The notes beneath the pieces are model-generated. The model was not told the DNA's origin and searched no databases. It saw only the letters and a list, made by a program, of their open reading frames with translations. A stretch of DNA of 41,560 bases from a virus: positions 1 to 41,560 of the IMG/VR virus record IMGVR_UViG_3300020112_000115. One strand, given 5' to 3'. The first letter of the stretch is position 1; each line of letters starts with the position of its first letter. The translations under genes were made by a program, and so were the position numbers. Below are positions 3,805 to 35,835 of the stretch, piece by piece.

Positions 3805-5541
3805 TTGCTATTCTATGACTTTGAAGTGTTCGCCTTTGATTGGCTGGTTGTGGTCATGGATATGACAGCAAAGAAAGAACACGTTATAGTCAATGACCCG
3901 AAAGCCCTTGATGATTTGTATGAAGCGAATAAGAAAGATATATGGGTTGGGTTCAATTCAAGGCGGTATGACCAATGGATTCTAAAGGGTATCTTGTGCG
4001 GATTCAACCCTAAGAAAATCAATGATTACATCATTCTTCAGGGAAATGACGGTTGGCGGTTTTCCACCATGTTCAGAAGTGTACCCCTGAACAACTATGA
4101 TGTAATGGCTAACATTGACCGTGGTTTGAAAGCCTTTGAAGGGTTCATGGGAAACAATATCAAAGAAACGTCTGTTCCTTTCGATATTGACAGACCCCTT
4201 ACAGATGCCGAAATTCAGGAAACAATCAAATATTGTCGGCATGATGTAGAACAAACCATACAGGTTTTTCTTCAGCGGAAAGAAGATTTTGATGGTGCTA
4301 TGGGTCTTGTTCGGTTGGCGTGTGAAGGGCGTGATCTGGATTTGTCATTGATAAGCAAAACCAAAGCACAACTTTCAGCGCTGATTCTTGGCGCTGTACA
4401 GCAACCCCATGATGATGAATTTGATATTGACTTTCCTGCTACCTTGCGAATATCAAAATATCAGAATGTGATTGACTGGTACAAAAACCCCGTGAACAGG
4501 CGGTACACGGATGAAAAAGGAAATAAGGTTCAGTATGAAACCATGATAGCAGGAGTTCCCCACCAATTCGGTTGGGGTGGTGTTCATGGGGCGCTTGAAA
4601 AGTATCACGGTGAAGGGTATTTCGTGAACATGGACGTTGCAAGCCTTTACCCGTCATTGATGATACAATACAACCTTCATTCCCGAAACATCAAAGACCC
4701 GTCAAAGTACGTTCAAATCTATGAAACCCGATTGCGATATAAGCGTGAAAAGAACCCTTTACAGTTGCCTTTGAAGCTGGTGTTGAATTCCACCTATGGG
4801 GTTATGAAAGACCCGAATAACGGGCTTTTTGACCCCTTACAGGCTAACAGGGTGTGTGTTTACGGTCAACTTCTCTTAGTTGACCTTATGGAACACTTAG
4901 AACCTTATTGTCAGATAATCCAAAGCAATACAGACGGTGTTCTAATTCGGATGCCTTACGGTCAGAATGAAGATGAATGGTTTGCGCTGGTTGATGATAT
5001 AGCCTATGAATGGGAACAGCGTACACACCTGAATCTTGAATTTGACGAATACAGGAAAGTGTTTCAGAAGGATGTGAACAATTACATCATTGTTGATGGC
5101 GCTGGAAAGTACAAATCTAAGGGTGCTTATGTGAAGAAACTAAGACCCCTTGACTATGATTTACCCATATTGAATAAGGCGCTGATTGAATACATGGTTC
5201 ATGGAATACCCGTTGAAAAAACTATAGAAAGTTGCGAAGAATTGAAGGAATTTCAGTTGGTTTCTAAGATTTCTTCCAAATATTCAGCGGTTTTACATGG
5301 GGAAATTCCGATAAAAGAAAAATGTATTCGGATTTTCGCAAGTACAGACCCGAACGCCAAAGGGGTTAAGAAAGTTAGTATTCGGACTGGCAAACCCGAA
5401 AAAATCACGAATAGCCCCGAACATTGTTTCATTTACAATGATTCGGTGAATGGTGTTCGATGTCCGTCTGATCTTGATAAACAATGGTATATCAACTTTG
5501 CGAAAAAGCGCTTACATGATTTTGGGGTGATGGAGGTGTAA
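3805..5541 (+). CDS. Family B DNA polymerase
   Basis: TTG start follows 'aaaggggtga'. Exo I 'FYDFEVF', motif A 'DVASLYPS', motif B 'KLVLNSTYG' and motif C 'SNTDGV'. Confidence 0.85.
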   Translation: MLFYDFEVFAFDWLVVVMDMTAKKEHVIVNDPKALDDLYEANKKDIWVGFNSRRYDQWILKGILCGFNPKKINDYIILQGNDGWRFSTMFRSVPLNNYDVMANIDRGLKAFEGFMGNNIKETSVPFDIDRPLTDAEIQETIKYCRHDVEQTIQVFLQRKEDFDGAMGLVRLACEGRDLDLSLISKTKAQLSALILGAVQQPHDDEFDIDFPATLRISKYQNVIDWYKNPVNRRYTDEKGNKVQYETMIAGVPHQFGWGGVHGALEKYHGEGYFVNMDVASLYPSLMIQYNLHSRNIKDPSKYVQIYETRLRYKREKNPLQLPLKLVLNSTYGVMKDPNNGLFDPLQANRVCVYGQLLLVDLMEHLEPYCQIIQSNTDGVLIRMPYGQNEDEWFALVDDIAYEWEQRTHLNLEFDEYRKVFQKDVNNYIIVDGAGKYKSKGAYVKKLRPLDYDLPILNKALIEYMVHGIPVEKTIESCEELKEFQLVSKISSKYSAVLHGEIPIKEKCIRIFASTDPNAKGVKKVSIRTGKPEKITNSPEHCFIYNDSVNGVRCPSDLDKQWYINFAKKRLHDFGVMEV

Positions 5542-10241: not shown

Positions 10242-10443
10242 GGAAACCACACTTGTTTGTTCACGTTGTGGAAAGCGTGAAAAAGTAAGCCTTGACCCTG
10301 ACAGTAAAAACAGCATTTTGAAGGTTGGTAAACGCTGGGGGTGTACTGGGGTTCTTTATTGCCCCGATTGCATTAAAGTAATGACGGTTGGAACTACCAA
10401 CTATGAAACGGTGTTATCTGTGATATTAAGATACATGAGGTGA
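10234..10443 (+). CDS. Zn-ribbon hypothetical protein
   Basis: 'CSRCGK' ... 'CPDC'. Confidence 0.5.
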   Translation: MNKETTLVCSRCGKREKVSLDPDSKNSILKVGKRWGCTGVLYCPDCIKVMTVGTTNYETVLSVILRYMR

Positions 10444-10448
10444 TAGGC

Positions 10449-11267
10449 ATGATTGATTGTAAGGCTTATGCTTCCGAAATCCTTAACGGTATCAAAGACA
10501 GGGTTTCCAAAGGGGAAACTTACGGAAATCTTGCGGTCATTTCGGTTGGTTACAATCCTGCTTCTGAATCGTATATGAAGGGTAAGAAGAAAGATTGTGA
10601 ATATGTCGGGTTCGGTTTCCACCACTTCAGCTTTACCGAACAGGTAACAACTGAATATCTGGTTCAGTTCGTGCGTGATCTGACTGTTCAGAATAAGTTC
10701 ATGTATGAGAACGGGAAACCGCTGACAGGTGTTATTCTTCAGCTTCCAGTTCCAAAGCATATTAACGCTGAAGAAGTGGTTCGGGCTATTCCCCGTTCGC
10801 TGGATGTGGACGGGTTCAAGCCTGAATCTGATTTCAACCCCTGTACCCCTGAAGCTGTTATGTACATCTTGCGGAAAGAATTAGGTGATTTCACGGGTAA
10901 GTCAGTTCTTTTGATTGGCAGGGGTCAGTTGGTCGGGAAACCCCTGCTTCAAATGCTGATTGATGCTGATATGACCGTAATTCAGGCACACAGTAAGTCA
11001 AAGCCTGAAGATATAAAGATGTTCGGGTTCTATTGTGATGCGGTTATATCGGCTATTGGTAAACCGTGGAAGTATGAAATTGACTTCTGTACCGATAAGG
11101 GCGTAATCATTGATTGCGGAATTAGTCGGGGTGCAGATGGCAAACTTCACGGGGATATTTACCCGAACTGTTGTGACCGTCAAACGCCTGTTCCTAACGG
11201 TGTTGGTCTTATGACCCGTGCAATGTTGGTTCAGCATTGTGAAAAGGTGGTGCTGGATAATGGCTAA
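10449..11267 (+). CDS. folD: Bifunctional methylene-THF dehydrogenase / methenyl-THF cyclohydrolase
   Basis: 'YMKGKKKDCEYVGF', 'GVILQLPVPKHI', 'DVDGF', 'PCTPEAVMYIL', 'GRGQLVGKPL' and 'PVPNGVGLMT' match conserved FolD blocks. ATG lies 6 nt after 'gaggtga'. Confidence 0.85.
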   Translation: MIDCKAYASEILNGIKDRVSKGETYGNLAVISVGYNPASESYMKGKKKDCEYVGFGFHHFSFTEQVTTEYLVQFVRDLTVQNKFMYENGKPLTGVILQLPVPKHINAEEVVRAIPRSLDVDGFKPESDFNPCTPEAVMYILRKELGDFTGKSVLLIGRGQLVGKPLLQMLIDADMTVIQAHSKSKPEDIKMFGFYCDAVISAIGKPWKYEIDFCTDKGVIIDCGISRGADGKLHGDIYPNCCDRQTPVPNGVGLMTRAMLVQHCEKVVLDNG

Positions 11268-11625
11268 TACGCTGGGCGTTGGTCGGGTGTACGTTGAAGA
11301 TGAAAAACAGCTTGAATACATTGACGGTATAGAACGCTTCTATGATCTGTTGGAACGCAAGATTGGCAGGGATGCGGTTGACTACCTGAAGGAATTTCTT
11401 GATGATTTCCAACAGAAAAAGATTGATGATGGTATTTGTGTTGGTGAATGTGATGCCCTGCATAAGCAACAGGAACACTATGAAACGGCTATCAAAGATG
11501 CGCTTGAAATCATTGATGAACGTTTCAACCGTCACCCGAAACGCAAAAAGAAAGCTAATTTTTCTACTTGGTCAGCAACGGATTTCTTCTATAAGATTGA
11601 AGAAATCCTGAATGGTGCGTTATGA
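11260..11625 (+). CDS. Hypothetical protein
   Basis: ATG at 11260 overlaps the folD stop. Coding-like composition. Confidence 0.5.
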   Translation: MANTLGVGRVYVEDEKQLEYIDGIERFYDLLERKIGRDAVDYLKEFLDDFQQKKIDDGICVGECDALHKQQEHYETAIKDALEIIDERFNRHPKRKKKANFSTWSATDFFYKIEEILNGAL

Positions 11626-11819
11626 GTTCTGGAAAAACCATTACATACATTGAACGGCTTGCTTATGATCGTTGGGTGTTGAATGGGCGGCTTGGCTATC
11701 GTGTGTACATTGGTTATACAAAGAATGAAGCCAAACAACTGTATCAAGCTGAATGGGAAGAAAGGGAACTAATGTATGGATGCCGAAGGAATGAAGCTGG
11801 TAAACGCTATTCAAGATAG
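11622..11819 (+). CDS. Hypothetical protein
   Basis: ATGA overlap with the upstream gene. Last ORF of the early arc. Confidence 0.5.
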   Translation: MSSGKTITYIERLAYDRWVLNGRLGYRVYIGYTKNEAKQLYQAEWEERELMYGCRRNEAGKRYSR

Positions 11820-27347: not shown

Positions 27348-29524
27348 TGTATTCTATTTATCTTGACGGTCAACTGTTGTTTGACCCCCGTATAGATGAA
27401 ATAGGCGTTACAGCGCCTACTTTGGAACTGGAAGCTAATAAGTTTGGTTCTTTGACGTTTACCATTTACCCAAACCACCCACTTTATGGAAGCATTGACA
27501 AAATCAGTTCTATTCTTACGGTCTATAAGGATGATCTGAAGATTTATCAGTTTAGACCGATTTGGACACAGCGCCAATTCAAAAACGCTATCAAGTATAA
27601 GTGTGAAGAATTGCTTGCCCGTTTGAATGATTTCAAATTCAGACCATTTGAATTTCAGGGTACAATTCAGGAATTTGTTGAATTGGTTCTGGATTCGTAT
27701 AACGCCAAATGTGATACTGGAAAAAAAATCTTTGTTGGCAATATCACGGTTACAGACCCCAATAATTACGTTGCTTATTCAAGTATTGATTATCTGGGGC
27801 ATTGGGAAGTATTGCAAACACGGCTTCAGGCTACACATGGCGGTTATTTCAAGGCAAGATACACCCAAAGCGGTATTTACCTTGATTATGTCAATGCTGA
27901 AGATTTGGACACGTCAACACAGGTCATTGAATTTGGTGAAAACCTTACTGATCTGTTTATAGAAACCGATTCCAAAGAAACGTTTTCGGTGCTGATTCCT
28001 TTGGGCGCTGAAATTGAAGCGTATGATGAACATGGTGACCCGATAAGAAAGCGCTTAACGGTTGAAACCGTGAATCAAAATAAGGATTACATTGAAAACA
28101 GTTCTGGAATTGCTTTGTATGGTCGGCGTGAAACATCAAAGATTTGGGATGATGTTACCATTGCTTCAAACCTGTTGACTAAAGGACGGGAATACCTTGA
28201 TACTATAGCGGTCAAGTTTTCCGAAACGGTTGAACTTTCGGCGGTTGATCTTCATAACGCCAACGCTGAAATTGAAACGTTCAACTTCCTTGAATGGGTT
28301 CAGGTCAGAAGTACGGTTCACAACCTTTCTGAATCTTACGTTCTGGAAAAAGCTAATATTCCGCTTGGTTCACCCGATTCGTCTAAAATTACACTTGGCG
28401 CTGTAAAACGTACATTGACAGATAAAATTCATTCTGATTCAAGTGATATGAAAGAATCACTTGATAAGATTGAAAGAAAGATAGAAACTATTCCGTTGCC
28501 TGATAACATGGTTGTTTCGGTTGATCTGGAATATTATCTTTCAACTTCAATGACACAGCTTCAAGGCGGTTCATGGTCAACCGTTGCTCCTGAATGGACT
28601 GAAGGAAAGTATATGTGGTCAAGGGTCAAGACCGAATATGAAGATGGTACTGTTACCACTTCAGACCCTACCTGTATTGCTGGCGCTAAAGGTCAAAACG
28701 GGCGTGACGGTCAAGATGGACAGAATGGGCGTGATGGTGTTGACGGTCAGGATGGTGCTGACGGGCAAGATGGTCAAGATGGCGTTGACGGTCAGGATGG
28801 TGTTGGTGTAACAAGTATTGATGATGAATTTTACTTGTCTACATCTAAAGTAACCCCAACGGGTGGTGAATGGACTTCCACACCCCCAACGTGGGAAGCT
28901 AATAAATACATCTGGGTAAGGTCGGTAATCACTTATTCCAACGGGAATGTTGAATATACAACGCCTTATTGTGATTCGTCATGGGAAGCGGTCAACGGTC
29001 TTAGGGATGAAGTTGATCTGGATTTGAATGAAATCATTCAGTCAATCAATGAACAGGAAGAAACCTTAACGGCTGTTATTGGTTCAACTGAAACTTCAAT
29101 CTTACAGACGGTGCTTCAGAACTATGTTGGAAAAGGTGAATACACAACCTACAAACAGACGGTTGGAACACAGATTCAACAGACAAAGGATGATCTGACC
29201 CTTACCGCCCAAAACCTTCAAACCTATGTTGATTCGTCAACAGGTGAAATCAGGCAGTTTGTAAACGGTGTTCAAACCTACATGAGATATTCAACAAATG
29301 GTTTGGAATTGGGCGCTGTTGGTTCAGCATTCAAAACCAAAATAAGCAATGAAAAGATTTCCTTCCTTCAGGACGGTGAAGAAATTGCTTATATCAGTAA
29401 CCGTAAGTTGTATATCACAGAAGCACAAATTACACAGCGCCTTTTGTTCGGTGTTGGTGATACTGAATTGTTTGCGTGGGTTACAACGGAAACAGGCTAT
29501 GGCTTGAAATGGATTGGAAGCTAA
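27347..29524 (+). CDS. Tail-associated protein (Tal / prophage tail endopeptidase family) with collagen-like stalk
   Basis: N-terminus 'MYSIYLDGQLLFDPRIDE...LELEANKFGSLTFTI' is typical. TAATG overlap with Dit. Confidence 0.75.
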   Translation: MYSIYLDGQLLFDPRIDEIGVTAPTLELEANKFGSLTFTIYPNHPLYGSIDKISSILTVYKDDLKIYQFRPIWTQRQFKNAIKYKCEELLARLNDFKFRPFEFQGTIQEFVELVLDSYNAKCDTGKKIFVGNITVTDPNNYVAYSSIDYLGHWEVLQTRLQATHGGYFKARYTQSGIYLDYVNAEDLDTSTQVIEFGENLTDLFIETDSKETFSVLIPLGAEIEAYDEHGDPIRKRLTVETVNQNKDYIENSSGIALYGRRETSKIWDDVTIASNLLTKGREYLDTIAVKFSETVELSAVDLHNANAEIETFNFLEWVQVRSTVHNLSESYVLEKANIPLGSPDSSKITLGAVKRTLTDKIHSDSSDMKESLDKIERKIETIPLPDNMVVSVDLEYYLSTSMTQLQGGSWSTVAPEWTEGKYMWSRVKTEYEDGTVTTSDPTCIAGAKGQNGRDGQDGQNGRDGVDGQDGADGQDGQDGVDGQDGVGVTSIDDEFYLSTSKVTPTGGEWTSTPPTWEANKYIWVRSVITYSNGNVEYTTPYCDSSWEAVNGLRDEVDLDLNEIIQSINEQEETLTAVIGSTETSILQTVLQNYVGKGEYTTYKQTVGTQIQQTKDDLTLTAQNLQTYVDSSTGEIRQFVNGVQTYMRYSTNGLELGAVGSAFKTKISNEKISFLQDGEEIAYISNRKLYITEAQITQRLLFGVGDTELFAWVTTETGYGLKWIGS
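28682..28807 (+). repeat. Collagen-like G-X-Y repeat (about 14 triplets)
   Basis: GAKGQNGRDGQDGQNGRDGVDGQDGADGQDGQDGVDGQDGVG. Confidence 0.9.
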
Positions 29525-29539
29525 AGGGGGTGGCTTTGA

Positions 29540-31603
29540 ATGTCTAACACATTAGAACTTACCGCTTCCAGTATGGCAAGCTATCAAACTTCATGGTATC
29601 ATACTGGGGAAATCATTCAAGGTTACTACAATAACAGCACAACCAAAATCTATTTCGGTTATTGCTGGTTTTCAAATGCTGATCTTCAAAGACTTAGAAA
29701 CACTATTGATAGTAGTGTTCAGGTTGAAAAGGTCGAAATCTATTTCCAACGTGCAAGCAGTTCACACGGTTCAGATGCGGCAACGGCTGTTCAGATAAAC
29801 AATACAACCCGTTCGGGTGCAAGTGGAACACCTTCCACTTCAGAACTTTCTAACGGGCTTGTAATCGGTTCTTTCACCCGTGGTCAAGCTAAGTGGTGTA
29901 CCATAAATGAAAGGCTGTTAAACGGGCTTCTGAACGGTCAGAACGGATTCTGTTTCTATCACAGTTCCGCAACGGCTTCAGGCAGTTGGAACTATTATGT
30001 CAGGTCTACCACATTACCGAAAATCAGAATTACTTACAGTATTCGGTATTCGGCTATTGAAACGGATGTTGATAAGGTCAATTTTGGTTCGGCTATCACA
30101 ACCACAATTAGCCCGAATGACCCGACTTTTTCCCATATTCTGACTTATCAGGTTGGGAGTTATTCAAACACCTTCACCCTTGCGGCTGGAAACCTTCAGC
30201 ATAACTTCACAGTTCCCCCGTCATGGATTAGCGCTATACCTGATGCGGTCATTGGCTATATGACTATTTCGTGTGCAACCTATGATTCTGGTGGGGTTCT
30301 GATCGGTACTGAAACCCTTCAGGTTGAAGTTGATGTTCCTTCAAGCGTTGTTCCAACGGCTGGTTCAATCACGTTGACAATCAACGGTGATACAACTGGT
30401 TGGGGCGTTGCTATCGTGGATAAAACCACAATCACAGCGGCGCTTTCTGGTTATAATGGTGTATATGGTTCAACTGTTGTGGGTTATACCTTATCAGGCG
30501 GCAACTATACATCAATCAATGAAAACCTGTTGGTGGCAAGTCTTGAAGCTGGTACGCTGACTGTAACGGGTACGGTAACGGATTCAAGAGGTAGACAAGC
30601 AACCGTAACCAAAAGCATTACCGTTTACGACTATTTACCGCCTTTCTTTCAGTCTTTGGAAGTTGGACGGTGTAATTCTTTAGGTACGCTTTCAAGTGAT
30701 GGTCATTATGCAAGAATCAGGGGTATCTTTGATTATTCGTCTGTTGGTGAACACAATACGGTCACTTGTTCCATACGCTACACTTGCATTTCAACAGGTG
30801 AAACCTATAGCGCTGGTAATCTTACAAGCGGCGTTACTAAGCTGATTGGTAACGGTGATCTGTCAAGTGATGAAGAATATGATATTGAATTCACCCTTAC
30901 AGATGGGCTTCAGTCTGTTACTTATGTAAGGCATATCAATAGTTCCGCTTATGCTATCCACTTCAAAAACGGTGGGCGTGGCGTTGCCTTTGGTCAGGCG
31001 GCTACAGAAGATGAAACTGTTAGGGTTCATAGGGATTGGCATTTCTATGTTGGAAATGACTTAGATTTGGCAAACCTTACCCCTGAAGATATTCATGCTT
31101 CCAATGAAAACCATACCCATAGTTTAGGGGATGAAAATATAACGGGAATGTTGCCCCCTGCAAAGTTGGCTTCTACCAATGCAGAAGCGGCGGCGGTTGT
31201 GGCGGTGCTGAAAACGGCTATTGTGGATGCTATTTACCCCGTTGGTTCAATCTTCATTACCGCTGGAAATGATAACCCGAACACTACCTTGGGTGGAACG
31301 TGGGAAAGAGTTAAAGACAAATTCCTTCTTTCCGCTGGTGATACTTATTCCGCTGGTAGTAAAGGCGGTTCAGCTTCCAGTTCCCATAAACACGGTTCAC
31401 CTGTTGCGTATAACAGTAGTACGGTTGGCTTTGTGAACGTGAATGGTACTTATTCAAGCGGTAACGGTAAAGCCTACAGAACCGCCAATACAGACCATTC
31501 AGGCACATTAAGCGCTAACGTTACTGTTGGCTATACCACAAACACTTCAGTTGATACAATGCCCCCTTATTTGGTGGTAAATGTATGGAAACGGACAGCA
31601 TAG
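29540..31603 (+). CDS. Tail fibre / receptor-binding protein (DUF859-like middle, collar-type C-terminus)
   Basis: The middle region is DUF859-like. The C-terminus has the collar-type motif 'IYPVGSIFIT...GGTWERV...GG..S.HKH'. Confidence 0.65.
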   Translation: MSNTLELTASSMASYQTSWYHTGEIIQGYYNNSTTKIYFGYCWFSNADLQRLRNTIDSSVQVEKVEIYFQRASSSHGSDAATAVQINNTTRSGASGTPSTSELSNGLVIGSFTRGQAKWCTINERLLNGLLNGQNGFCFYHSSATASGSWNYYVRSTTLPKIRITYSIRYSAIETDVDKVNFGSAITTTISPNDPTFSHILTYQVGSYSNTFTLAAGNLQHNFTVPPSWISAIPDAVIGYMTISCATYDSGGVLIGTETLQVEVDVPSSVVPTAGSITLTINGDTTGWGVAIVDKTTITAALSGYNGVYGSTVVGYTLSGGNYTSINENLLVASLEAGTLTVTGTVTDSRGRQATVTKSITVYDYLPPFFQSLEVGRCNSLGTLSSDGHYARIRGIFDYSSVGEHNTVTCSIRYTCISTGETYSAGNLTSGVTKLIGNGDLSSDEEYDIEFTLTDGLQSVTYVRHINSSAYAIHFKNGGRGVAFGQAATEDETVRVHRDWHFYVGNDLDLANLTPEDIHASNENHTHSLGDENITGMLPPAKLASTNAEAAAVVAVLKTAIVDAIYPVGSIFITAGNDNPNTTLGGTWERVKDKFLLSAGDTYSAGSKGGSASSSHKHGSPVAYNSSTVGFVNVNGTYSSGNGKAYRTANTDHSGTLSANVTVGYTTNTSVDTMPPYLVVNVWKRTA

Positions 31604-31617
31604 AAAGGATGATGTAA

Positions 31618-33132
31618 ATGCTTACAGGTACGCAGTTGAACAGGATTATTACCGCCCTTGGCGGTAATGTCCTTAACCTTCCCGATGATCTGTATTCTAC
31701 AAAACTGGAAGTTATCATTCAGCTTTTGGGTGCTAAAGGCGGCGTTATTCCCCGTCTGGATGAACTGGAAGTTGAAATGTACAAACTTCAGCTTATTTCG
31801 GGTTATACGATTGATGAAAGCATTGCTGGATTGGTCGTTGATTACCTTAATAAGTCTTTCACCCGTATTCAGGGTGCGGCAGGACTTACCGCTGGTACGG
31901 CGTTTAACAAGTGGGCTATGTTCGGTGGTCGTATGCGCTGTAATGTTGCCGATGATGGAACTATTAACGCATGGTTCGGGGATGCCGATTATGCCGAAGA
32001 TGGTTCTAACGGTCAGGTTATGATTTATCAGCCCAAAGTGTACTATTGCAGAGTACCCATTAGGCTTGAAAAAGCTGATCTGGGCTATCATATCCGCAAA
32101 GAAGCGCTTCTGGTTTCTGATACCCCCAAAGCTGGTTTCAAACTTCACCCTGCATTTTATGATGCAAACGGTAATGAAGTTGATTACATCATGTTCAGCG
32201 CCTATGAAGGTTGCGTGTTTGATGTATCGGCTAACGCCTATGTGCTGAATGATGCACAAACCACAGATTTCAACGCTGACAAAATCTGTTCTATTGCAGA
32301 TGCTAAACCTATGTCGGGTCTTTCACAGAACCTTACAAGACCTAACGTTGAAAAGCTGGGTCAGAATCGTGGTGCTAACTGGCATGGCGAATTTATTCAG
32401 CTTACTTCCCTGAATCAGCTTCTTATGACGGTTGAACTTGGAACGCTGAATACCCAAACCGCTATTGAAAGCGGCGTTACTGGTATCACGGATAACAGCG
32501 CTTATAACTGTTCTTCCCTTACTGGTAGCACTTCCACCCTTGGAAACGCTACAGGTGCGGCAACCACTACCATTAACGAAATTGGCGGTGTTGAAACCGA
32601 ATATAGCGTTGCTGGTAAGCGGTCTGTTTCTTACCGTGGCATGGAAAACCCGTGGGGTAACTTGTGGAAGTTCGTGTATGGTATCAACATTCACGGTAAC
32701 GGTTCGCAGGGCGGCGGTATTCCGTACATCTGTACTGATTTCAACTTTGCAGAATCTAAGAATTCTGGAAACTATGAAAGCGCTGGTTTCCAGATGACTA
32801 ACGTAAGCGGCTATATTTCCGCTTTCGGATATGGTGAAGAAAAGTATGATTGGCTTTTCATTCCGTCTGAATGTGGTCAGAACGGCGCTAATTCCACTTT
32901 GCCCGTTGGTGATTATACCTATGTAACCGCTGACCTGAATGGCTACAGGATTGCTTATCTCGGCGGTAAGTGGAATGGTGGTGCTGGTGATGGCGCTTTC
33001 TGTTGGGATTGTAATGGCGGGGTCGGTCATCGTCATCGGACTGTCGGCGGTCGGTCGGCGTATGTACCTGTTGCCAACAGCGCTTCCCATGATGCGGCTG
33101 TTCTGGCGTGGGAAACTAAAATGGCGGCTTAA
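31618..33132 (+). CDS. Tail fibre / receptor-binding protein with C-terminal C-type-lectin-like variable region (DGR target)
   Basis: The C-terminus 'YLGGKWNGGAGDGAFCWDCNGGVGHRHRTVGGRSAYV' has the GGxWxxGxxxGxF...G.RS pattern of DGR variable proteins. It contains the VR. Confidence 0.8.
   Translation: MLTGTQLNRIITALGGNVLNLPDDLYSTKLEVIIQLLGAKGGVIPRLDELEVEMYKLQLISGYTIDESIAGLVVDYLNKSFTRIQGAAGLTAGTAFNKWAMFGGRMRCNVADDGTINAWFGDADYAEDGSNGQVMIYQPKVYYCRVPIRLEKADLGYHIRKEALLVSDTPKAGFKLHPAFYDANGNEVDYIMFSAYEGCVFDVSANAYVLNDAQTTDFNADKICSIADAKPMSGLSQNLTRPNVEKLGQNRGANWHGEFIQLTSLNQLLMTVELGTLNTQTAIESGVTGITDNSAYNCSSLTGSTSTLGNATGAATTTINEIGGVETEYSVAGKRSVSYRGMENPWGNLWKFVYGINIHGNGSQGGGIPYICTDFNFAESKNSGNYESAGFQMTNVSGYISAFGYGEEKYDWLFIPSECGQNGANSTLPVGDYTYVTADLNGYRIAYLGGKWNGGAGDGAFCWDCNGGVGHRHRTVGGRSAYVPVANSASHDAAVLAWETKMAA
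32949..33064 (+). repeat. DGR variable repeat (VR)
   Basis: 116-bp match to 33210..33325. All 25 mismatches fall at template adenines. Confidence 0.85.
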
Positions 33133-33209
33133 ATAGCCGTGATTTTCGGTTAAGTAAATCGCTGATTATTCAGGATAGAAGTTACATCATATAAGTAAAA
33201 AATCTTTTT

Positions 33210-33325
33210 AATTGCTTATATCGGCAGTAAATGGAATAATGGTACTAATGATGGCACTTTCTATTGGAATTGTAATAACAGGGTCAGTAATCGTAATCGG
33301 AATATCAGCGGTCAGTCAGCAAATG
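33210..33325 (+). repeat. DGR template repeat (TR), non-coding
   Basis: Rich in AAY codons in the VR-equivalent frame (7 aat, 1 aac). Of its 39 adenines, 25 differ in the VR. None of the 77 non-A positions differs. Confidence 0.85.
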
Positions 33326-33340
33326 CAAGTATATCCTGAA

Positions 33341-33363
33341 GGGGTAGGTTTCTGATCTACCCC
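33341..33363 (+). other. Hairpin 16 nt downstream of the TR
   Basis: ggggtag-gtttctgat-ctacccc. Confidence 0.6.
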
Positions 33364-33526
33364 TTTCACCAACTGATTACTTAACCGTGGCACTTGTCAA
33401 AACACACTACTACCTTGGCTGGCTGGTTCATTGCAACGGTCAAAACCTATTCAGGAAATACTTCTTACCGTTGAAACCCTATGTGGAACAATACTATAAA
33501 ACCGTTATAAAGGGGGTTAAACTTGA

Positions 33527-33799
33527 ATGATTTCTTATGGTCGTACAAGAAGTGATACTGAACCTATGACGGTGCAGATTACCGAAACAAAGGTTTTTGT
33601 TGCTTCCAACGCTGAACAGTATTCTGAAGTGATCGAAGGGAAAACCGTGACTGGTTGGGAATTTGATTACACGGAATACGAAAAGAACGAATACATTCAG
33701 GCGTTGAAAACCGAAAATGAAACGCTTGAAGCTAACATTACCAACACACAGCTTGCCTTGTGTGAAGTCTATGAACTGATTTGTGGGGGTGTGCTGTAA
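33527..33799 (+). CDS. Hypothetical tail-associated protein
   Basis: ATG follows 'aaaggggg'. The coiled-coil C-terminus 'ALKTENETLEANITNTQLALCEVYE' resembles XkdW-like proteins. Confidence 0.55.
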   Translation: MISYGRTRSDTEPMTVQITETKVFVASNAEQYSEVIEGKTVTGWEFDYTEYEKNEYIQALKTENETLEANITNTQLALCEVYELICGGVL

Positions 33800-33918
33800 T
33801 GGCAAGAATTTACGCAAACCTTATTTTGAAAGGTCTGAAAACCATTGAAGATGTTCCTGCAAACTTGCGCGAAGAAGTTCAGCGTATTCTTGATGAATAC
33901 ATTAACATGGGTGCTTGA
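33799..33918 (+). CDS. Small protein (39 aa), CD1375-like, paralogue 1
   Basis: MARIYANLILKGLKTIEDVPANLREEVQRILDEYINMGA. TAATG overlap with the upstream gene. Confidence 0.55.
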   Translation: MARIYANLILKGLKTIEDVPANLREEVQRILDEYINMGA

Positions 33919-33937
33919 AAGATTGGGGGTTGAAAAT

Positions 33938-34063
33938 ATGGCTATCGTTTATGCAACGCTTATTGTGAAGGGTGCTAAGAACTTTGCAGATGTTCCCGAA
34001 AGACTGAAGGAACAGGTTCGTGAAATCCTTGAAGCGCTGGATTGCCCTGAATTGGCTGAATAA
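33938..34063 (+). CDS. Small protein (41 aa), CD1375-like, paralogue 2
   Basis: MAIVYATLIVKGAKNFADVPERLKEQVREILEALDCPELAE. RBS 'gggggttgaaaat'. Confidence 0.55.
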   Translation: MAIVYATLIVKGAKNFADVPERLKEQVREILEALDCPELAE

Positions 34064-34108
34064 GGCGCTTCTGGTTTTACCCTATAAACTTCATCATGTA
34101 AATCCGTC

Positions 34109-34150
34109 AAGCCCCTGTAATCGGCTGGAAATGCCTTACAGGGGCTTTTG
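34109..34150 (+). terminator. Hairpin / possible terminator
   Basis: aagcccctgtaa ... ttacaggggctt followed by ttg. Confidence 0.5.
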
Positions 34151-34174
34151 ACGTGTAGAAAGTAGGAACAGAAA

Positions 34175-34495
34175 ATGAATTTGTATCAGGTTCTTTGTCT
34201 GATCGGTGTACCGTCTATGTTTATTGCCCTGTTCGGCTTCCTTTGGGCTAAGTTGAAAAACTACAATAAGGAAACCAAAGCCCTGAAGCTGGGTGTTCAG
34301 GCGCTTCTTAGGGCGCAGATGATAAACGACTATAACCAATGGTCAGAAAAAGGTTATGCCCCGATTTATGCCCGTGAAAACTTTGAAAACTGTTGGAAAC
34401 AGTATCACGGGTTAGGGGCTAATGGGGTTATGGATGATATTCACAATAAGTTTATGGCGCTTCCTACCCCGAAAAACGATAATAAGAAAGGATGA
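34175..34495 (+). CDS. Lysis-associated membrane protein (putative holin component)
   Basis: Single N-terminal TM helix. Lies directly upstream of the holin and endolysin. Confidence 0.5.
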   Translation: MNLYQVLCLIGVPSMFIALFGFLWAKLKNYNKETKALKLGVQALLRAQMINDYNQWSEKGYAPIYARENFENCWKQYHGLGANGVMDDIHNKFMALPTPKNDNKKG

Positions 34496-34500
34496 TCTGT

Positions 34501-34707
34501 ATGACTAATTTCAAGGCATGGTTCAAGGCGGCTGGTATTCGTGCTATCAAAACGATTGCACAAACGGCGGTTGCCACTATCGGAACTTGCGCTATCATTT
34601 CTGAAGTGAATTGGCTTCAGGTCGGTTCAGCGGCGCTTCTGGCTGGTGTTCTTTCCCTGCTTACTTCTGTTGCTGGACTGCCTGAAGTGAAGGATGGTGA
34701 ACAGTAA
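34501..34707 (+). CDS. Holin (LL-H-like)
   Basis: 'AGIRAIKTIAQTAVA' plus two TM segments. Immediately precedes the endolysin. Confidence 0.7.
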   Translation: MTNFKAWFKAAGIRAIKTIAQTAVATIGTCAIISEVNWLQVGSAALLAGVLSLLTSVAGLPEVKDGEQ

Positions 34708-35696
34708 TGACGGGCGCTGAAAGAATCGTTGCACAGGCTTCTAAATGGGTTGGTTATCTGGAAAAGAAGTCTAACAGTCAGCTTGACGATTTTACCGCCA
34801 ACGCTGGAAGCAATAATTACACCCGTTTCAACCGTGACCTGATTTCTTACAAACAGGGTATTGGCGCTCAACCTATGGAATGGTGTGCGGCTTTCGTTTC
34901 CTGTTGCTTTGTGTATGAATTCGGTCTGGAAGTGGCTAAACAGCTTCTTTGTGGTGGACTTCATTGCTACACCCCTTCAGGCGCTAACTACTTCAAGAAA
35001 AAGGGTCGTTACATCAAACGTGGTTCTGGAAAACCGAAGGTTGGTGACGTAATTTTCTTCTATTCCAGTTCCAAAGGGCGTATTGGTCATGTTGGCATTG
35101 TGTATAAGGTTTCTGGTTCAACCGTGTACACCATTGAAGGTAACACTTCTGGGGCTAACACTCTGATTACCAACGGTGGCGGCGTAAAGAAGAAATCTTA
35201 TTCCATGAGTTCCACCTATATTGATGGTTATGGTTCGGTGGATTATTCCATTGTTGACGGTGGAACGCCTGTAACCCCGACTGAAACCCCTGATCTGAAG
35301 AAGGGCGCTGAAGGTATCTATGTTGAGAAAATGCAGAAACTTCTTCTGGATTGGAATAAGGACTGTTTACCGAAATATGGCGCTGATGGGGACTTTGGAA
35401 CGGAAACCGAAAACGCTGTAAAGGCTTTCCAGTCTGAAAAGAAGTTGACCGTGAACGGTGTTTGCAATGCTGAAACGTGGGCGGCGCTGGGTGCAGATTC
35501 TTCTAAGCTGGTTCTGATTACGGGCGGTTCGGTGTATATCAGAACGGGCGCTGGTACTGGAAATAAGTCTATTGGCATTGTTCATAAGGGTGAAACTTAC
35601 CCCTATGTGAACACGGCTTCTAACGGCTGGTTTGAAGTGAAATACCTGAATGGTACAGCGTTTGTTTCCAACAAATACGCTAAGATTCAGGGATAA
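34707..35696 (+). CDS. Endolysin: CHAP/NlpC-P60-type amidase plus PG_binding_1 plus SH3-like domain
   Basis: Catalytic 'WCAAFVSCCF' and 'GHVGIVY...IEGNTS'. PG-binding block 'GADGDFGTETENAVKAFQ'. The C-terminus is SH3-like. Confidence 0.85.
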   Translation: MTGAERIVAQASKWVGYLEKKSNSQLDDFTANAGSNNYTRFNRDLISYKQGIGAQPMEWCAAFVSCCFVYEFGLEVAKQLLCGGLHCYTPSGANYFKKKGRYIKRGSGKPKVGDVIFFYSSSKGRIGHVGIVYKVSGSTVYTIEGNTSGANTLITNGGGVKKKSYSMSSTYIDGYGSVDYSIVDGGTPVTPTETPDLKKGAEGIYVEKMQKLLLDWNKDCLPKYGADGDFGTETENAVKAFQSEKKLTVNGVCNAETWAALGADSSKLVLITGGSVYIRTGAGTGNKSIGIVHKGETYPYVNTASNGWFEVKYLNGTAFVSNKYAKIQG

Positions 35697-35702
35697 GGCG
35701 CT

Positions 35703-35722
35703 GTTACTAACGTGTTACTAAC
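35703..35722 (+). repeat. Tandem GTTACTAAC x2 (11-bp phasing), copy 1
   Basis: gttactaacgtgttactaac. 18 of these bases recur at 35878..35895. Confidence 0.85.
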
Positions 35723-35835
35723 CACCCCGAATTTCAGCGTTTTCAGACGTTATTAAATACCGAAAAAACCCTGAAAATAGGCTTATATCAGGCATTTACA
35801 TAGCGGCTGAATCATGGTATAACAATTCTGGCATA

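Follow-up and report, generated by a model that had tools for sequence, protein, structure and literature searches.

A phage template/variable repeat pair without a reverse transcriptase: a diversity-generating retroelement probably disabled by a recent deletion

In the diversity-generating retroelement (DGR) of Bordetella phage BPP-1, the mtd variable repeat (VR) is followed by avd, the template repeat (TR), a spacer and brt. We analysed a related locus in a 41,560-bp stretch of viral DNA (IMG/VR record IMGVR_UViG_3300020112_000115, positions 1 to 41,560; hereafter the window), which carries a TR/VR pair on a tail protein gene and no gene for a reverse transcriptase (RT). As in BPP-1, the VR of the window lies at the 3′ end of a gene for receptor binding by the tail and is closely followed by a TR that is non-coding. 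The repeats likewise differ at adenines only, the TR codons are rich in AAY, and there are fixed TR/VR differences at the 3′ end, as in the initiation of mutagenic homing sites (IMH/IMH*) of BPP-1. The relatives of the window also have an RT gene immediately downstream, as BPP-1 does. Unlike BPP-1, the window has lost its RT gene and the distal part of the spacer, and its family carries no avd gene between VR and TR, having instead an acidic open reading frame (ORF) of 88–90 aa translationally coupled to the 3′ end of the RT gene. The host also differs, being a Gram-positive anaerobe (Clostridia).

Closer still are intact sister cassettes of Lachnospiraceae/Clostridia phages and prophages, namely the loci L005 (SRR12177877) and L002 (ERZ27233012) and prophages in Sporofaciens sp. 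SGI.106 and in Lachnospiraceae bacterium SGI.054. They share with the window the tail module, the tail protein (81–95% in the closest), the TR (identical in L005), the spacer, the small ORF (ORF90), a holin and a CHAP endolysin. Unlike the window, which is short by 1,056 bp, they keep the RT gene (354–377 aa) and the full spacer. In Clostridium phage CS266P3 the tail protein is homologous (58% identity); a VR/TR pair and a weak remnant of the spacer RNA motif RT-17 are present, and an RT is again lacking. This phage differs from the window in that RT and ORF90 are wholly gone, in three non-A mismatches between its repeats and in its backbone. From the comparisons below we conclude that the locus is very probably an ordinary phage DGR cassette of a known family, recently disabled by a single deletion of 1,056 bp.

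An adenine-specific repeat pair in a closed genome

The VR (32949..33064, plus strand) spans codons ∼445–482 of the tail protein gene and matches the non-coding TR (33210..33325, plus strand) over 116 bp without gaps, the homology stopping sharply at both ends. The copies differ at 25 positions, the changes from TR to VR being 20 A>G, 4 A>C and 1 A>T. All 25 fall within the 39 adenines of the TR, as expected of a DGR, and 0 of the 77 non-A positions differ; the probability that 25 random differences would all fall on these adenines is 9e-16. The difference counts in the original prediction of an adenine-specific pair (25 differences, 77 non-A positions unchanged) were confirmed by this alignment. 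The assignment as a DGR TR/VR pair on a tail gene was borne out by the A-only pattern and by the match of the target gene to phrog_5302. The TR is indeed rich in AAY codons in the VR frame, the number being 9 AAT and 1 AAC rather than the 7 AAT and 1 AAC counted earlier, and a single TR codon (AAA) is able to mutate to a stop. In this frame the VR translates as IAYLGGKWNGGAGDGAFCWDCNGGVGHRHRTVGGRSAY and the TR as IAYIGSKWNNGTNDGTFYWNCNNRVSNRNRNISGQSAN. The 3′ target of the VR consists of GGCGGTCGGTCGGCGTATG plus flank.

Some of the differences recur across the family. At TR positions 17, 105, 109 and 113 the identical change from TR adenine to VR base (A-to-G or A-to-T) was seen in 11 of the 11 lineages compared. 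At least 4 of the 25 TR/VR differences are thus fixed, either as IMH/IMH*-like differences at the 3′ end or through strong selection, and do not stem from random mutagenesis. Positions 105, 109 and 113 (and 17) may have an IMH-like directional role; the locus in any case has the fixed 3′-end differences between VR and TR that mark directionality in DGRs.

The contig bears a 141-bp direct terminal repeat, which closes the genome at 41.4 kb. Pfam scans gave no RVT_1 match in any ORF of at least 200 aa or in the ORFs around the TR. The one Y/F-x-DD box found in a six-frame search of the window lies in a frame of 136 codons that does not represent an RT. When the RTs of four relatives served as queries, tblastn against the window found only a 39-codon remnant at 33411–33527. 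The claim that this is a closed genome without an RT gene therefore stands.

A deletion across the spacer and the reverse transcriptase gene

The closest homologues of the tail protein were P0122 (95% identity), P0001 (94%), P0002 (81%) and P0005 (69%). In those of their contigs that reach far enough, the tail gene is followed by an RVT_1 gene of 331–368 aa, an ORF of ∼90 aa, a holin and a CHAP endolysin. The order tail protein, TR, RVT_1 RT (354–377 aa) and ∼88–90-aa ORF was found in L002/L003, L005 and L007, whose tail proteins are 81–95% identical to that of the window. The same succession of tail protein, TR, RT and ORF occurs in the more distant L004, L008–L010, L014 and L017–L024, and the gene order is identical in more distant prophages of Sporofaciens and Lachnospiraceae isolates. 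The RT of L002 (368 aa) has YMDD and LPIGNYHSQ motifs and matches Pfam RVT_1 and phrog_1423 ‘Reverse transcriptase’. Whether relatives have an RT cassette at the place of window positions 33330..33526 had been put forward as a check, and a DGR-type RT is found exactly there. Because the RT is absent here and present in all close relatives, the locus is a defective DGR derivative and not a functional member.

By blastn, the window was collinear with L002/L003 and L005 at 96.6–98.8% nucleotide identity except for one gap of 1,056 bp. Window positions 28760–33412 correspond to L002 7143–11799, and positions 33411–35822 to L002 12856–15265. The sequence missing from the window is thus L002 11800–12855, and the size of the gap is the same against L005. 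The deletion covers the final 69 nt of the TR–RT spacer and RT codons 1–329. Its junction lies at 33411..33412, where ‘TA’ is common to both flanks (2-nt microhomology); the sequence reads ...CACACTACTA up to the junction and CCTTGG... beyond it. What is left of the RT gene, codons 330–368 (YLGWLVHCNGQNLFRKYFLPLKPYVEQYYKTVIKGVKLE) with the stop codon (33528–33530), occupies 33411..33530 on the plus strand and has no start codon. In tblastn the remnant (33411–33527) matched residues 330–368 of the L002 RT at 100% identity (E 2e-20), and it was also matched by the RTs of three other lineages. Because part of the RT gene persists, the difference reflects a deletion in the lineage of the window and not an insertion in its relatives. 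Very recent loss of the RT, one of the explanations offered originally, is directly supported by the RT of the relatives, the 39-codon remnant and the truncated spacer RNA described below.

A quite different account would have a phage enzyme other than an RT, such as the PolB-type polymerase encoded at 3805–5541, carry out adenine-specific templated mutagenesis. A polymerase of its own (phrog_1252) is indeed encoded by the phage, and nothing beyond this and the absence of an RT speaks for such an activity; no PolB is known to perform adenine-specific templated mutagenesis. As the RT remnant and the intact cassettes of the relatives fully account for the pattern, we regard this account as having a negligible chance of being correct.

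The deletion also truncates a structured RNA. Motifs RT-1 to RT-19 were described as lying near RT genes, with RT-10 between the TR and brt of BPP-1 (Weinberg et al. 2017, PMC5737381); other RT motifs were suggested to serve DGRs, and the role of RT-17 was left open (PMC5737381). In the phage family studied here, RT-17 (Rfam RF03020, gathering score 40.4) occupies the position that RT-10 holds in BPP-1. The TR–RT spacers of five loci scored above the threshold: L009 (10018–10111; 61.4 bits), L048 (2889–2991; 58.6 bits), L016 (56.6 bits), L027 (4527–4621; 52.4 bits) and L031 (4161–4250; 47.1 bits). Those of L002 (11770–11855), L004 and L005 scored just below it (38.8–39.7 bits), and no RT-17 match at E ≤ 0.01 was found in L020, L022, L024 or L055. 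Because it lies 30–60 nt past the TR, just upstream of the DGR RT, RT-17, so far a motif without an assigned role, can on this placement be assigned to the TR–RT spacer of a DGR clade.

In the window RT-17 scored only 15.1 bits (E 8.7). The deletion starts at L002 11800, inside the motif, and removes about two thirds of it; the 5′ 30 nt remain at 33383..33412 (plus strand), comprising the first hairpin (TGGC-ACTT-GTCA) and AAAAC, and 56 nt are gone. Of a spacer that measures ∼160 nt in relatives, 87 nt are kept and 69 nt deleted, the lost blocks in the spacer alignment being ACTGTATTGGTAG, the second helix and GAAGATTC...TGCATAC. The relatives thus carry RT-17 in a full spacer, and the window has a truncated one. 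The part retained includes a further hairpin, evident in the sequence as GGGGTAG-N9-CTACCCC at 33341..33363 (plus strand), between the TR and the RNA motif. At this spot the sequence differs among window/L005, L002, L004 and L010 while a hairpin is kept; it is absent in the L008/L009 lineages.

The state of the spacer bears on whether an RT from the host or another element could act in trans on the window's own TR transcript, as had originally been proposed. The TR is intact, with 39 adenines, and identical to that of a functional relative, and the 87 nt of spacer include the first RT-17 hairpin. However, DGR RTs are specific to their own RNA, the distal spacer elements are gone, and the RT-17 score has fallen from 39–61 to 15 bits. 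Because the deletion takes about two thirds of the conserved spacer RNA, the TR RNA of the window is probably unusable even with an RT in trans. In BPP-1 nearly the entire spacer is needed; spacer A56 primes the cDNA, whose synthesis is abolished when the spacer is shortened by 20 nt at its 3′ end (Handa 2018, PMC6182149). Copying of the window's own TR is consequently highly improbable. Neither this proposal nor that of an unfamiliar phage enzyme is needed, since the deletion and the remnant explain the locus and most of the spacer RNA is lost.

Homing history and loss of the reverse transcriptase in related cassettes

The TR of the window is identical at 116 of 116 positions to that of the RT-carrying L005, and shows four non-A differences from that of L002. 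At those four sites the VRs of the window and of L002 each match the base of their own TR, indicating that TR-to-VR transfer took place in the lineage of the window after its split from L002. The window VR differs from the L005 VR at 15 positions, all of them TR adenines, and from the L002 VR at 17 TR-A positions. Outside the VR, the tail genes of the window and L005 have diverged by 3.5% (5.9% when third codon positions alone are counted), and the sequences downstream by 2.4%. In a repeat pair frozen from the time of their split, ∼2–5 non-A differences between TR and VR would be expected; none was observed, and the last homing event therefore followed the split from L005. Judging from these comparisons, the deletion would thus be later still, unless an outside source of cDNA exists. 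The original prediction had taken the lack of non-A drift as a sign of recent activity. This holds weakly, in that the count (0 against ∼2–5 expected) gives a date for the last homing event without demonstrating any activity after RT loss.

We propose that an intact ancestor had a VR in the tail protein gene, a TR, a structured spacer RNA, a DGR-type RT and a small downstream ORF, and that its RT wrote the adenine-only differences before being lost. A single and probably recent deletion with 2-nt microhomology would then have removed the end of the spacer and RT codons 1–329 and spared the TR, the first 87 nt of the spacer, the 39 codons at the 3′ end of the RT gene, and ORF90. The VR would now be a frozen allele, since an enzyme is missing and the TR RNA is without the spacer elements for self-primed cDNA synthesis. 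The phage would stay viable since the DGR is accessory.

Further cassettes with a defective RT were sought. An exact search with 50 nt of the TR and a protein-pattern search of IMG/VR gave no match, and TR cores of 29 and 22 nt were used instead. With these cores, 66 viral, 3 genome and 3 metagenome loci were retrieved; old decayed relics would be missed, because a 22-nt exact TR match was demanded. Downstream sequence of at least 1,400 nt was available for 63 distinct TR/VR pairs, of which 59 were followed by a full-length RT and 4 were not (the window, L001, L016 and L028). The RT is also truncated in L012 and L077, whose flanks are shorter, giving ∼6 RT-defective loci in ∼65 related cassettes. 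The breakpoints of the RT deletions all differ among the window, L012, L016, L028, L077 and CS266P3. L016 (214–1020) has lost RT residues ∼10–190 in frame at an 8-nt microhomology, L012 (12179–12620) retains only ∼70 C-terminal RT residues, and L028 (2871–3290) only RT codons 1–27; the TR is intact in all three. In L077 (IMGVR_UViG_3300028568_000080, 11546–11661) the 3′ end of the TR is joined directly to RT codon 104. The fifth, L001, is the cultured Clostridium phage CS266P3 (OP172777.1, 1–470 and 46742–47855; host Clostridium_AP sp000509125 DA266), with a VR/TR pair and no RT in its genome. Its repeats show 30–32 adenine differences and 3 non-A mismatches at the 3′ end of the TR, and a weak RT-17 match lies at 391–466.

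Two of these loci showed peculiarities of their own. The ‘TR’ of L077 carries ∼11 substitutions in its first ∼80 nt at positions that are A in sister TRs, the last 30 nt being intact. This TR looks as if it had itself been adenine-mutagenised, and an aberrant cDNA-mediated event may have produced both these changes and the deletion. Such a retro-deletion is possible for L077; for the window it was rejected, the flanks of its junction showing no adenine-specific changes relative to L005 and L002. A breakpoint hot spot was likewise discarded: the 5′ breakpoints of the window and L012 lie 87–89 nt after the TR, but the spacer alignment places them at non-homologous positions because the lineage of the window has the extra hairpin. 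In the record of CS266P3 the tail protein gene is unannotated and the 55-bp end overlap falls inside the VR. VR heterogeneity in the lysate may have set this assembly break, because the chance of a random cut at such a place is below 0.5%.

The same collection bears on whether the VR is still being diversified in trans, with mutagenised cDNA from the intact cassette (TR, spacer RNA and RT) of a co-resident or co-infecting relative homing into it by way of its matching 3′ end and flank, and the phage acting as a free-rider. A potential donor exists in the RT-carrying L005, whose TR is identical at 116/116 positions. One IMG/VR sample (3300045988) yielded both the RT-carrying L009 and the RT-deleted L012, whose TRs are identical. 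L012 and L016, both RT-defective, are 97% identical and have identical TRs, also common to the RT-carrying L009 and L018, and their VRs differ at 18 TR-A positions. The lysogeny modules of L002 and the window differ, so that co-lysogeny is conceivable. In BPP-1, avd-TR-brt provided in trans from a plasmid supports homing, according to a passage of Wu 2018 (PMC5758913) citing Guo 2008. Finally, there is no surplus of non-A mismatches in RT-less loci, such mismatches numbering 0–3 in RT-defective and RT-carrying loci alike.

None of this is direct evidence that a VR changed after any RT loss. No pair of contigs with the same junction and different VRs was found, the junctions of L012 and L016 occur in no other viral contig searched, and these two loci may have lost their RT independently. 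Homing in trans also needs both elements in the same cell and a matching target site. The RT-defective loci are a minority (∼6/65) and all look young, as expected if diversification stops and they do not persist. We therefore consider continued diversification of the window VR in trans unlikely. A broader proposal, that RT loss is recurrent without being a dead end because RT-less phages (the window, L012, L016, L028 and CS266P3) are rewritten by the intact cassettes of co-resident prophages, is equally doubtful; in a weaker version, RT loss may be selected to lock in a successful receptor specificity.

Several points weigh against a recently disabled cassette with a frozen VR. That RT-less relatives show no extra non-A drift fits recent loss and, equally, continued homing. 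The spacer requirement is borrowed from BPP-1, where the spacer carries another motif, RT-10. The evidence comes from assemblies, and the VR may be polymorphic or the RT-less form a minority in its sample. The deletion itself rests on one assembly, and its exact junction was absent from the metagenome and viral contigs searched. This single contig could conceivably be an assembly artefact or a minority variant, the dominant phage keeping an intact RT. However, the flanks share only 2 nt, far too few to collapse an assembly graph, the contig closes via its 141-bp terminal repeat, and five other, differently placed RT deletions occur in independent assemblies, including that of a cultured phage. 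An artefact or minority variant is thus very unlikely, and the single deletion in the lineage of the window is the reading we retain.

Target gene, neighbouring genes and significance of the locus

The target of the DGR, a tail protein gene of 504 codons (31618..33132, plus strand), matches phrog_5302 ‘tail protein’ (E 3e-84). It closes the tail module, downstream of a gene for a DUF859/Gp10_C baseplate protein, and holds the same position in all relatives. More than 8000 homologues are present in public data, mostly in Lachnospiraceae/Clostridia phages and prophages. A consensus scan placed a putative terminator-like hairpin (6-pair stem, then a T-rich tail) over its stop codon (33124..33140, plus strand). 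In DGRs the VR lies in a C-type lectin or Ig-like fold, and a C-type-lectin-like scaffold had originally been suggested for the variable segment. This found no confirmation: there was no Pfam or PDB sequence match, a PDB profile search returned coiled-coil noise only, from N-terminal extensions of homologues, and AlphaFold2 models of the full-length protein and of the C-terminal domain were of low confidence over the VR domain, with a predicted local distance difference test score (pLDDT) below 50. The top three PDB fold matches of the low-confidence model were to the Thermus aquaticus DGR variable protein 5vf4 (E 0.012, template modelling score ∼0.2).

ORF90 (33527..33799, plus strand) encodes an acidic 90-aa protein (isoelectric point 4.2) matching phrog_18126, of unknown function. 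In every relative examined, its ATG and the stop codon of the RT gene overlap as ATGA, and it follows the RT in L002–L024. It is retained in 4 of the 5 RT deletions in which the downstream region is visible. ORF90 gave no significant Pfam or PDB sequence match, and a role as an Avd analogue is unsupported, Avd being a basic four-helix bundle; it could be an accessory factor or an unrelated gene of the lysis module. No Avd or HRDC accessory gene was recognised, as no gene lies between VR and TR and ORF90 is without a sequence match. The lack of a recognisable Avd looks like a trait of the family, because intact relatives show the same.

By Pfam scans of its ORFs, the genome is that of a temperate siphovirus of a Gram-positive host. 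It encodes a PD-(D/E)XK/AAA_24 protein, the PolB-type polymerase (3805–5541; phrog_1252, with a weak Pfam DNA_pol_B match), a D5-type primase-helicase and FolD. Also encoded are TerL, an SPP1-type portal, MuF, scaffold, capsid, tape measure, Dit and Tal proteins, together with a tyrosine integrase, a cI-like repressor, an r1t-type holin and the CHAP endolysin. The FolD-like gene (10440–11267), an auxiliary metabolic gene, encodes a bifunctional methylene-tetrahydrofolate dehydrogenase/cyclohydrolase with both Pfam domains (E 1e-32 and 2e-21). Elsewhere in the family, sub-threshold matches to the type-P1 twister ribozyme (gathering score 67) were noted in L004 (18239–18293, 44 bits) and L027 (10773–10827, 42 bits), both in early regions.

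With the relatives in hand, the paradox of a DGR without an enzyme disappears at this locus: it is a DGR seen shortly after deletion of its RT, an instance of ordinary gene decay, whose VR should best be regarded as fixed. Since DGR surveys take the RT gene as their starting point (e.g. PMC8008677), TR/VR relics without an RT go unseen; our literature searches found no explicit treatment of RT-less or ‘orphan’ DGR repeat pairs. In the family of this tail protein, independent RT loss affects roughly one cassette in ten (∼6/65), with no appreciable decay of the TR/VR pair in any of them. The pattern is in keeping with losses that are frequent and lineages that persist only briefly, as expected under lineage-level selection for evolvability.

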